From Promethearchaeota archaeon (GTDB taxonomy: Archaea > Asgardarchaeota > Lokiarchaeia > Sigyniarchaeales > SOKP01): 64,000 nucleotides of DNA. The notes beneath the pieces are model-generated. The model was not told the origin of the DNA and ran no database searches. It was given only the letters and a program-made list of their open reading frames with translations. Location of the stretch: assembly GCA_019057795.1 (NCBI GenBank), contig JAHLWS010000073.1, positions 64,001-128,000 of the forward strand, in the 5' to 3' direction. The translations under genes were made by a program, and so were the position numbers. Positions 44,426 through 44,981 of the stretch are shown here, one piece after another (position 1 is the stretch's first letter; each line of letters begins with the position of its first letter).

Positions 44426-44981
44426 TTACAGCTCCCCCTTTATCATGTCGTCATATTCTCCATTCTCAATCTTTTTCTGAATTACTCGCGGGTCCTCGCC
44501 TTCTATTGTGGCTCCAATTGACAACACTGTCCCTATTACGGTCTTTACAGCAGTTTTGAAGGTTTTATCTAAAAAGATATCTTTTTTAGCGTTAGTAACG
44601 TTAACTACCTGTTCAAGAGTTAAATCTCCAATTTTTTCCTCAGAACTATTCGAACTCCCTTTTTCAGCGCCTAATTCTTTTAAAAGTAGTGAAGCTGTAC
44701 TTGGCGTCTCTACGAATATCTCAAACTGTTTTGTCTCAGGATCGCATTCGATTCTAACGGGTACCGTTAAACCTTTAAAAAGCATGGTTTTTTCGTTAAC
44801 TGCGTCCACTACGTCCTTGATGTTTGCATAGGAAATCGATTCAATTTCCGTTTATGCCAGTAGGACCTACAGCGGGACCTTTACATAAATAAAGCGATTT
44901 GCTTTATGTAATAGGCGGTCCTCCGCTCGCAGATCCCCCTGTAACTAGTGCCTTAACAATGATTTTGTTTGTTTTACTCAT
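44426..44981 (-). CDS. rpl11: 50S ribosomal protein uL11, spliced: exons 44981-44911, 44880-44852, 44823-44426 (165 aa)
   Basis: Spliced product [58 protein letters not shown]...; exons 71+29+398=498 nt; GAGG SD; first gene of L11-L1-P0-P1. Confidence 0.93.
44824..44851 (-). other. rpl11 intron 2 (28 nt, BHB, frame-shifting)
   Basis: Perfect central helix GCAT/ATGC, bulges AA^A and AA^A, inner helix GGAAATTG/CGATTTCC, outer helix GTCCT..TG/CA...AGGAC. Confidence 0.88.
44881..44910 (-). other. rpl11 intron 1 (30 nt, BHB, contains in-frame TAA)
   Basis: Outer helix GGACC/GGTCC, central helix GCCT/ATGT (one mismatch), bulges AT^T and AA^A, inner helix ATAAAGC/GCTTTAT. Confidence 0.85.

Follow-up and report, generated by a model that had tools for sequence, protein, structure and literature searches.

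The window, a stretch of 64,000 nucleotides from a Promethearchaeota/Promethearchaeia (former Lokiarchaeia) MAG, carries on its minus strand at 44981-44426 a uL11 gene in which two inserts interrupt the reading frame. The frame opened by the ATG at 44981 meets a TAA stop inside a 30-nt insert (44910-44881), and a 28-nt insert (44851-44824) located behind a micro-exon of 29 nt (44880-44852) causes a frameshift. At this locus the mechanical ORF list contains a truncated ORF of 127 aa, which starts at GTG 44809 and lies inside 44823-44426. When the exons of 71, 29 and 398 nt are joined, they yield 165 codons followed by one terminal stop. The coordinates of exons, inserts and truncated ORF had been given in an earlier note made from the sequence alone and proved exact on re-reading; the lineage, too, agrees with the probable Asgard archaeon supposed there. 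Upstream of the gene, an A/T-rich box TTTAAATA (45008-45001, minus strand) and a Shine-Dalgarno-like GAGG (44988-44985, minus strand) 4 nt upstream of the ATG were read from the sequence as putative promoter signal and putative ribosome-binding site, respectively.

Exon 1 (44911..44981, minus strand) runs from Met1 up to the second base of the Ile24 codon (...GGSASGGPP followed by AU) and agrees with the N-terminus of uninterrupted relatives. It is followed by putative intron 1 (44881..44910, minus strand; site B in the alignment described below), which contains the in-frame TAA and has a G+C content of 23%. Exon 2 (44852..44880, minus strand) contributes the third base of the Ile codon, the residues GPAVGPTGI and the first base of an Asn codon; the outer helix of intron 1 is closed by GGUCC near the 5' end of this exon, and GCAU near its 3' end provides one strand of the central helix of intron 2. 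The frame-shifting putative intron 2 (44824..44851, minus strand; site C) precedes exon 3 (44426..44823, minus strand; 398 nt including the stop), which encodes the remaining part of the N-terminal domain and the RNA-binding domain (PF00298) and covers positions 37-159 of the 164 positions of profile NF002232. Exon 3 alone matches PF00298 and the last 27 of the 58 positions of PF03946, and the remainder of PF03946 is supplied by exons 1 and 2 with a weak match (positions 1-26). The spliced polypeptide contains both uL11 domains (PF03946 and PF00298) and aligns over its full length with two-domain relatives.

Cutting past the second bulge base of each motif gave the 165-aa uL11 that had been claimed, and 158 of its 165 residues (96%) are identical to P0001, an uninterrupted database protein of 165 aa. 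Among genomic alleles, L036 is the closest uninterrupted one and is identical to the predicted spliced product over an N-terminal stretch of 31 residues. The predicted junctions join ...CCGCCUAU to AGGUCC... and ...GGCAUAA to ACAUCAAG... in the message. The case that would speak against splicing, an intact uL11 copy elsewhere, was checked with protein and Pfam PF03946 searches of the whole 4.95-Mb assembly (100% complete; bin contamination 7.5%), which contains a single uL11 locus. Further copies of the intron sequences were not found in the genome (zero matches); a 19-nt match on contig C70 was rejected as an intron copy, the sequence there being A/T-rich and non-tRNA.

The BHB motif was applied as follows. 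The 5' strand consists of the outer helix, four exon bases, a bulge (two exon bases and one intron base) and the inner helix, and the 3' strand consists of the inner helix, four intron bases, a bulge (two intron bases and one exon base) and the outer helix, with the cut placed after the second bulge base on both strands as for cbf5 (PMC2738675). Intron 1 forms an inner hairpin of 7 bp (AUAAAGC at 44907-44901 with GCUUUAU at 44895-44889, loop AAAUC), bulges AU/U (44912-44910) and AA/A (44882-44880; cuts at the slashes) and an outer helix GGACC/GGUCC (44921-44917 and 44879-44875). In its central helix, exon GCCU (44916-44913) faces intron AUGU (44886-44883) with three of four positions paired (G-U, C-G, C x U, U-A). 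Intron 2 has a perfect central helix between exon GCAU (44857-44854) and intron AUGC (44829-44826), bulges AA/A (44853-44851) and AA/A (44825-44823), and an inner hairpin of 7 bp (GGAAAUU at 44849-44843 with GAUUUCC at 44837-44831, loop GAAUC); its outer helix is weak or relaxed, with 2 bp and a distal GUCC/GGAC helix of 4-5 bp. Both folds are thus as the earlier note described them, except that its central helix GCCT/ATGT for intron 1 was overstated.

The hairpins are more stable than shuffled sequences (z of -2.8 to -3.3). ViennaRNA left the central helix of intron 1 unformed, also in the constrained fold, and predicted a large internal loop between the strong outer helix and the strong hairpin. 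In relatives, the BHB fold is the minimum-energy fold or lies at most 2.4 kcal/mol from it (ViennaRNA). The C x U mismatch is unique to the allele of this genome among 12 site-B alleles; together with the helix left unformed in the folding, it indicates that splicing of intron 1 may be inefficient. For intron 2, lacking a solid outer helix, an enzyme tolerant of relaxed motifs would be needed. The chance of finding a 4-bp helix in exactly the required register is about 2% per site, and in relatives such a helix is present at four out of four sites.

To place the two inserts in context, 103 loci from relatives were collected and reduced to 87 distinct alleles, 9 from other families of the order and 78 at the family level, the latter from independent Promethearchaeia MAGs of many unrelated projects. 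This alignment of uL11 across the former Lokiarchaeia, suggested in the earlier note as a check, revealed both a presence/absence pattern and covarying stems. Inserts (one to three each) occur in 39 of the 78 family-level alleles and are missing in the other 39; none of the 9 alleles from other families of the order carries one. The 39 carriers hold 50 inserts in total, which the alignment places at four sites within about 22 codons, and uninterrupted relatives have nothing at these positions. Site A, after VTGG, holds inserts of 28-38 nt in 16 alleles; site B (intron 1 here), between PPI and GP, inserts of 30-36 nt in 12 alleles; site D, between PAV and GP, inserts of 28-30 nt in 6 alleles; and site C (intron 2 here), between GIN and IK, inserts of 28-29 nt in 16 alleles. 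Homologues of intron 1 are found at site B in 11 other alleles and homologues of intron 2 (28 or 29 nt) at site C in 15. Lengths of 28, 29, 30, 31, 32, 35, 36, 37 and 38 nt were seen, covering all three phases. At site C the insert measures 28 nt here vs 29 nt in L007 and L008, which are sister genomes; both frames are restored when the insert is removed exactly.

In 150 genomes drawn evenly from the phylum, short uL11 frames occurred only in the window's own family, in three genera, and uL11 was uninterrupted in about 120 genomes from 28 other families. Three introns (A, B and C) or the combination of A and D occur in some alleles (L110, CAYPFJ010000040.1, and L056/L060), with intervening exons as short as 21-29 nt. 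The two putative introns of this genome are part of a four-site, fast-changing hotspot that lay beyond the view of the earlier note.

With the BHB rule as the only input, the conserved N-terminus of uL11 was recovered in each of the 38 testable carriers. The central helix has four of four pairs in every intron at sites A, C and D (16/16 paired at site C), while at site B four pairs were found in eight and three pairs in three of the 11 other alleles. The first pair at site A is A-U in 7 alleles, U-A in 5 and U-G in 3, with zero mismatches: exon GGA/GGU covaries with intron CCCU/CCCA, the exon partner being the synonymous third base of a Gly codon. Pair counts at site C gave 87% paired cells, 22-40% for slid partners and 100% for the central helix; the corresponding values at site B were 88%, 20-64% and 92%. 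Compensatory changes on both sides (GC-to-AU exchanges) are present in the inner stems at sites B and C. The earlier claim that the inserts are BHB introns was made from a single genome's letters, and across relatives its register, covariation and frame restoration (the last in 38/38 carriers) hold.

The exon sequence flanking each site is associated with the presence of the intron. Here, independent contrasts between exon motif and intron presence are given as same way : other way. The site A motif GGW GGG AG is present in 15/15 carriers and 6/62 non-carriers (contrasts 8.3 : 0), the site C motif GGC AUA A in 16/16 and 11/62 (7.4 : 0), the site B motif CGCC[U/G]AU in 11/12 and 8/66 (5.5 : 0) and the site D motif CC[G/A]G[C/U]UGU in 6/6 and 6/72 (3 : 0). 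This association could in part reflect the inheritance of exon and intron as one block. Across the 34 codons that span all junctions, carriers show 93 extra synonymous vs 19 amino-acid variants, and non-carriers show 106 synonymous vs 24 amino-acid variants in the same codons. The purifying selection in carriers thus matches that in non-carriers, indicating that the interrupted genes are alive and are read in the spliced frame.

Turnover was followed on a tree built from the C-terminal part of uL11 and the neighbouring uL1. The minimum number of changes in intron presence on this tree is 13 for site A, 11 for B, 3 for D and 15 for C. In this genome sites B and C are occupied, in its two closest relatives all sites are empty and in the following two relatives sites A and C hold introns; intron 1 is most similar to the B introns of a distant clade. 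Repeated exact loss and transfer by recombination are both compatible with these data, and either may have produced the pattern. The 31-nt site-B intron of L103 (L103:1411-1469) has an interior unrelated to the other eleven and a perfect central helix, and does not have the U-C-G loop tip described below; it may represent an independent gain at the same site.

A further feature of the introns is U-C-(G/A) at the 3' edge of the apical loop, which was found in 43 of 45 uL11 introns at all four sites and in the introns of a second gene. Examples (loops between slashes) are GC/AAAUC/GC, UC/AUUUC/GA and GC/AUAUC/GC; in this genome the loops are located at 44896-44900 and 44838-44842. Among genome-wide hairpins, the U-C-G loop motif was not enriched, nor did it enrich for BHB contexts. 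The loop tip may reflect shared descent or some requirement of its own.

The second gene, at 8374-8026 on the minus strand, encodes a small membrane protein (no match in Pfam) and contains at 8126-8096 a 31-nt BHB insert with a GCUU/AAGU helix and bulges AC/A and UA/A. Fourteen of 18 same-genus relatives do not have this insert and read ...SMLTTPAPVPLEELEEEL... straight through, and in the remaining four (L124, L127, L128 and L134) an insert occupies the same position; in L127 and L134 a second insert follows about 30 nt downstream. As judged from the sequence, the intron of this gene is of the type seen in uL11 and has the same pattern of presence and absence. In a genome-wide census, BHB candidates joining open frames were no more numerous than shifted decoys; the hits were dominated by adjacent same-strand genes, and frameshift introns with an open wrong frame were missed, so that the census does not inform on prevalence.

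The splicing machinery presumed in the earlier note, EndA and RtcB, is represented by two EndA paralogues of 200 and 201 aa and one RtcB ligase gene. One EndA paralogue has the catalytic Tyr, His and Lys and matches the catalytic (C-terminal) half of the fused form; the other is without the His and matches the structural (N-terminal) half. The best solved-structure matches of EndA are 3p1z_B and 3ajv_B (E 4e-34), which we take to be the catalytic subunit of the Aeropyrum pernix EndA heterotetramer. Heterotetrameric EndA of the Aeropyrum type cuts relaxed motifs (PMC5829648), and the host is predicted to encode an alpha/beta EndA of this relaxed-motif-accepting type along with RtcB. Run on the whole genome with introns allowed, ARAGORN recognised only 18 tRNA genes, of which 10 contain introns; for a 100%-complete genome this low number suggests that most tRNA genes are too interrupted for detection. 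Asgard tRNA genes are heavily interrupted (PMC11291895; bioRxiv 10.64898/2026.10.13.758758), and the ARAGORN counts fit this description. Within the window, ARAGORN placed a tRNA-Ser(GGA) with a 19-nt intron at 39710-39813 on the plus strand (C73:103710-103813); a scan of the window itself found no tRNA.

We consider it highly probable that the uL11 pre-mRNA carries two BHB introns which are removed by EndA alpha/beta and RtcB. According to this proposal, uL11 would be transcribed with both short introns, each of which would fold into a hairpin in the pre-mRNA. The four intron bases preceding the final two would pair with the four exon bases just upstream of the 5' splice site, leaving a 3-nt bulge on each strand. 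The two-subunit EndA alpha/beta would then cut after the second base of each bulge, RtcB would join the exons, and the introns would probably be released as small circles. The 165-aa protein would be encoded only by the doubly spliced message. Cutting and joining, with their order and efficiency, are what we infer from the observed anatomy, frame restoration, covariation, selection and enzyme genes. uL11 may have become a hotspot because its Gly-Pro codons (GGN CCN) are self-complementary and thereby provide the exon halves of the helices for free. When metagenome contigs were searched for this allele and the ABR02-type allele in unspliced, half-spliced or fully spliced form, 0 matches were returned for each, and none of 134 fetched database proteins equals the spliced product of any carrier. 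The 165-aa ENA protein P0007 (L119), which has a similar N-terminus, was considered as a spliced product and turned out to be another uninterrupted relative.

Splicing would be unneeded if the ribosome skipped the inserts during translation, either by programmed bypassing as in T4 gene 60 or yeast mitochondrial byps, or by frameshifts. AAAC is repeated at both ends of insert 2, making an AAC-to-AAC hop formally possible, and hairpins are known at the bypassing take-off site of phage T4 gene 60. Hopping needs matched codons, however, and cannot join partial codons: insert 1 is without matching take-off and landing codons, and in many alleles (L010 and L039 at site C; 9/15 at site A) a single boundary pair restores the protein and splits a codon without a repeat. 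Since insert lengths at the same site fall into all three phases (28/29 and 30/31/35/36), a fixed frameshift is excluded, and the covariation supports an exon-intron helix in exactly the BHB register. We therefore regard skipping by the ribosome as extremely improbable. The inserts could instead be removed from the RNA by an agent other than EndA and RtcB, be it a different nuclease and ligase or a self-cleaving structure. The imperfect central helix of intron 1 and the weak outer helix of intron 2 leave room for such an agent, and the conserved U-C-(G/A) tip (43/45 introns) has no role in known EndA recognition. Against a self-cleaving structure, a group I or II ribozyme would by far exceed the 28-38 nt of the inserts and an Rfam search of 44300-45200 matched no family; against other enzymes, EndA and RtcB are both encoded in the genome, and the register of helix and bulges obeys the EndA rule at four independent sites. 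Removal by another agent appears very unlikely on these grounds.

The copy could also be damaged or mis-assembled, that is, a decaying gene, a gene whose product is the 127-aa protein from GTG 44809, or an assembly artefact. Such a reading would be in line with the unique mismatch in intron 1, with the two closest relatives being without inserts and with the bin contamination of 7.5%. Moreover, uL11 is dispensable in some bacteria and in yeast. Yet both inserts are homologous to inserts of independently assembled MAGs, some of them near-identical (intron 2 matches at 100% over 31 nt, intron 1 at 96% over 26 nt), and the origin of the carriers from many unrelated MAG projects excludes an assembly artefact. 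Furthermore, the three exons are intact, the protein is 96% identical to uninterrupted relatives, purifying selection on the spliced frame is normal across the carriers taken together, and the 127-aa product would miss more than half of the N-terminal domain. A damaged or mis-assembled copy is accordingly judged highly improbable, and two BHB introns removed by EndA and RtcB are retained as the preferred explanation.

In the literature searched, endonuclease splicing of an archaeal coding sequence is confirmed for cbf5 only (PMC2738675, PMC7714728), and Asgard introns are described in tRNA genes only (PMC11291895). The cbf5 intron of Crenarchaeota (Watanabe 2002; Yokobori 2009, PMC2738675) resembles those of uL11 in being a short coding-sequence intron, often with a relaxed BHB, whose cleavage is predicted between the second and third bulge residues, in its hetero-oligomeric (alpha-beta)2 endonuclease and in its varying presence among related species (PMC2738675). 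It differs in that cbf5 is interrupted once, at one position, whereas uL11 has two introns separated by a 29-nt exon and, across the family, four sites; the host of uL11 belongs to the Asgard archaea (Promethearchaeia) rather than the Crenarchaeota, the gene is that of a ribosomal protein, and the turnover is far faster, with differences between sister genomes. Splicing of cbf5 was shown by cDNA and enzyme assays, while splicing of uL11 is deduced from comparison of genomes. The non-canonical tRNA introns of Asgard archaea and Thermoproteales (PMC11291895; bioRxiv 10.64898/2026.10.13.758758) share with the uL11 introns the motif and the size range, the occurrence of several per gene, many apparently independent gains and the two-subunit EndA. 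Their exon helices are derived from the cloverleaf, in contrast to uL11, where the exon halves are coding, constrained at synonymous sites and belong to a protein product. The BHB intron of Haloferax volcanii HVO_1309 is an mRNA substrate of the splicing endonuclease, as evidenced by circular-RNA sequencing and in vitro cleavage; unlike the uL11 introns, it stands alone, measures 46 nt and lies in the 5' UTR, and the frame is independent of it (PMC7714728). T4 gene 60 and yeast mitochondrial byps have, like uL11, short hairpin inserts with stops in essential coding sequence, but these are flanked by matched take-off and landing codons and are kept in the mRNA, whereas the uL11 inserts split codons without repeats. 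The proposed mechanism is an already known one, and what is new is the host lineage and the gene. Also new are the two putative introns sharing a 29-nt exon, the four-site hotspot and the apparent co-evolution of exon and intron via synonymous sites.

Beyond this locus, the chances appear evenly balanced that one Promethearchaeia family runs general, fast-evolving, endonuclease-spliced micro-introns in ordinary protein-coding messages, several per gene and with micro-exons, which would be gained and lost between sister species while the exons co-evolve via synonymous sites. If true, the closest relatives of eukaryotes would possess an archaeal counterpart of intron-rich gene structure that relies on protein enzymes, and translation would have to wait for, or tolerate, splicing. 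Gene callers truncate such genes, giving 127 aa here instead of 165. Many public uL11 entries of the lineage are 119-142 aa long, several of them named '50S ribosomal protein L11'; these gene calls are truncated and begin only after an intron that went unrecognised. In this lineage near the eukaryotes, a core ribosomal protein would require two splicing events, and coupled transcription-translation would have to be reconciled with stop-containing introns. The four-site hotspot, which differs among sister genomes, is a natural experiment on the gain, loss and constraint of BHB introns, and mRNA splicing without a spliceosome may belong to routine archaeal gene expression.
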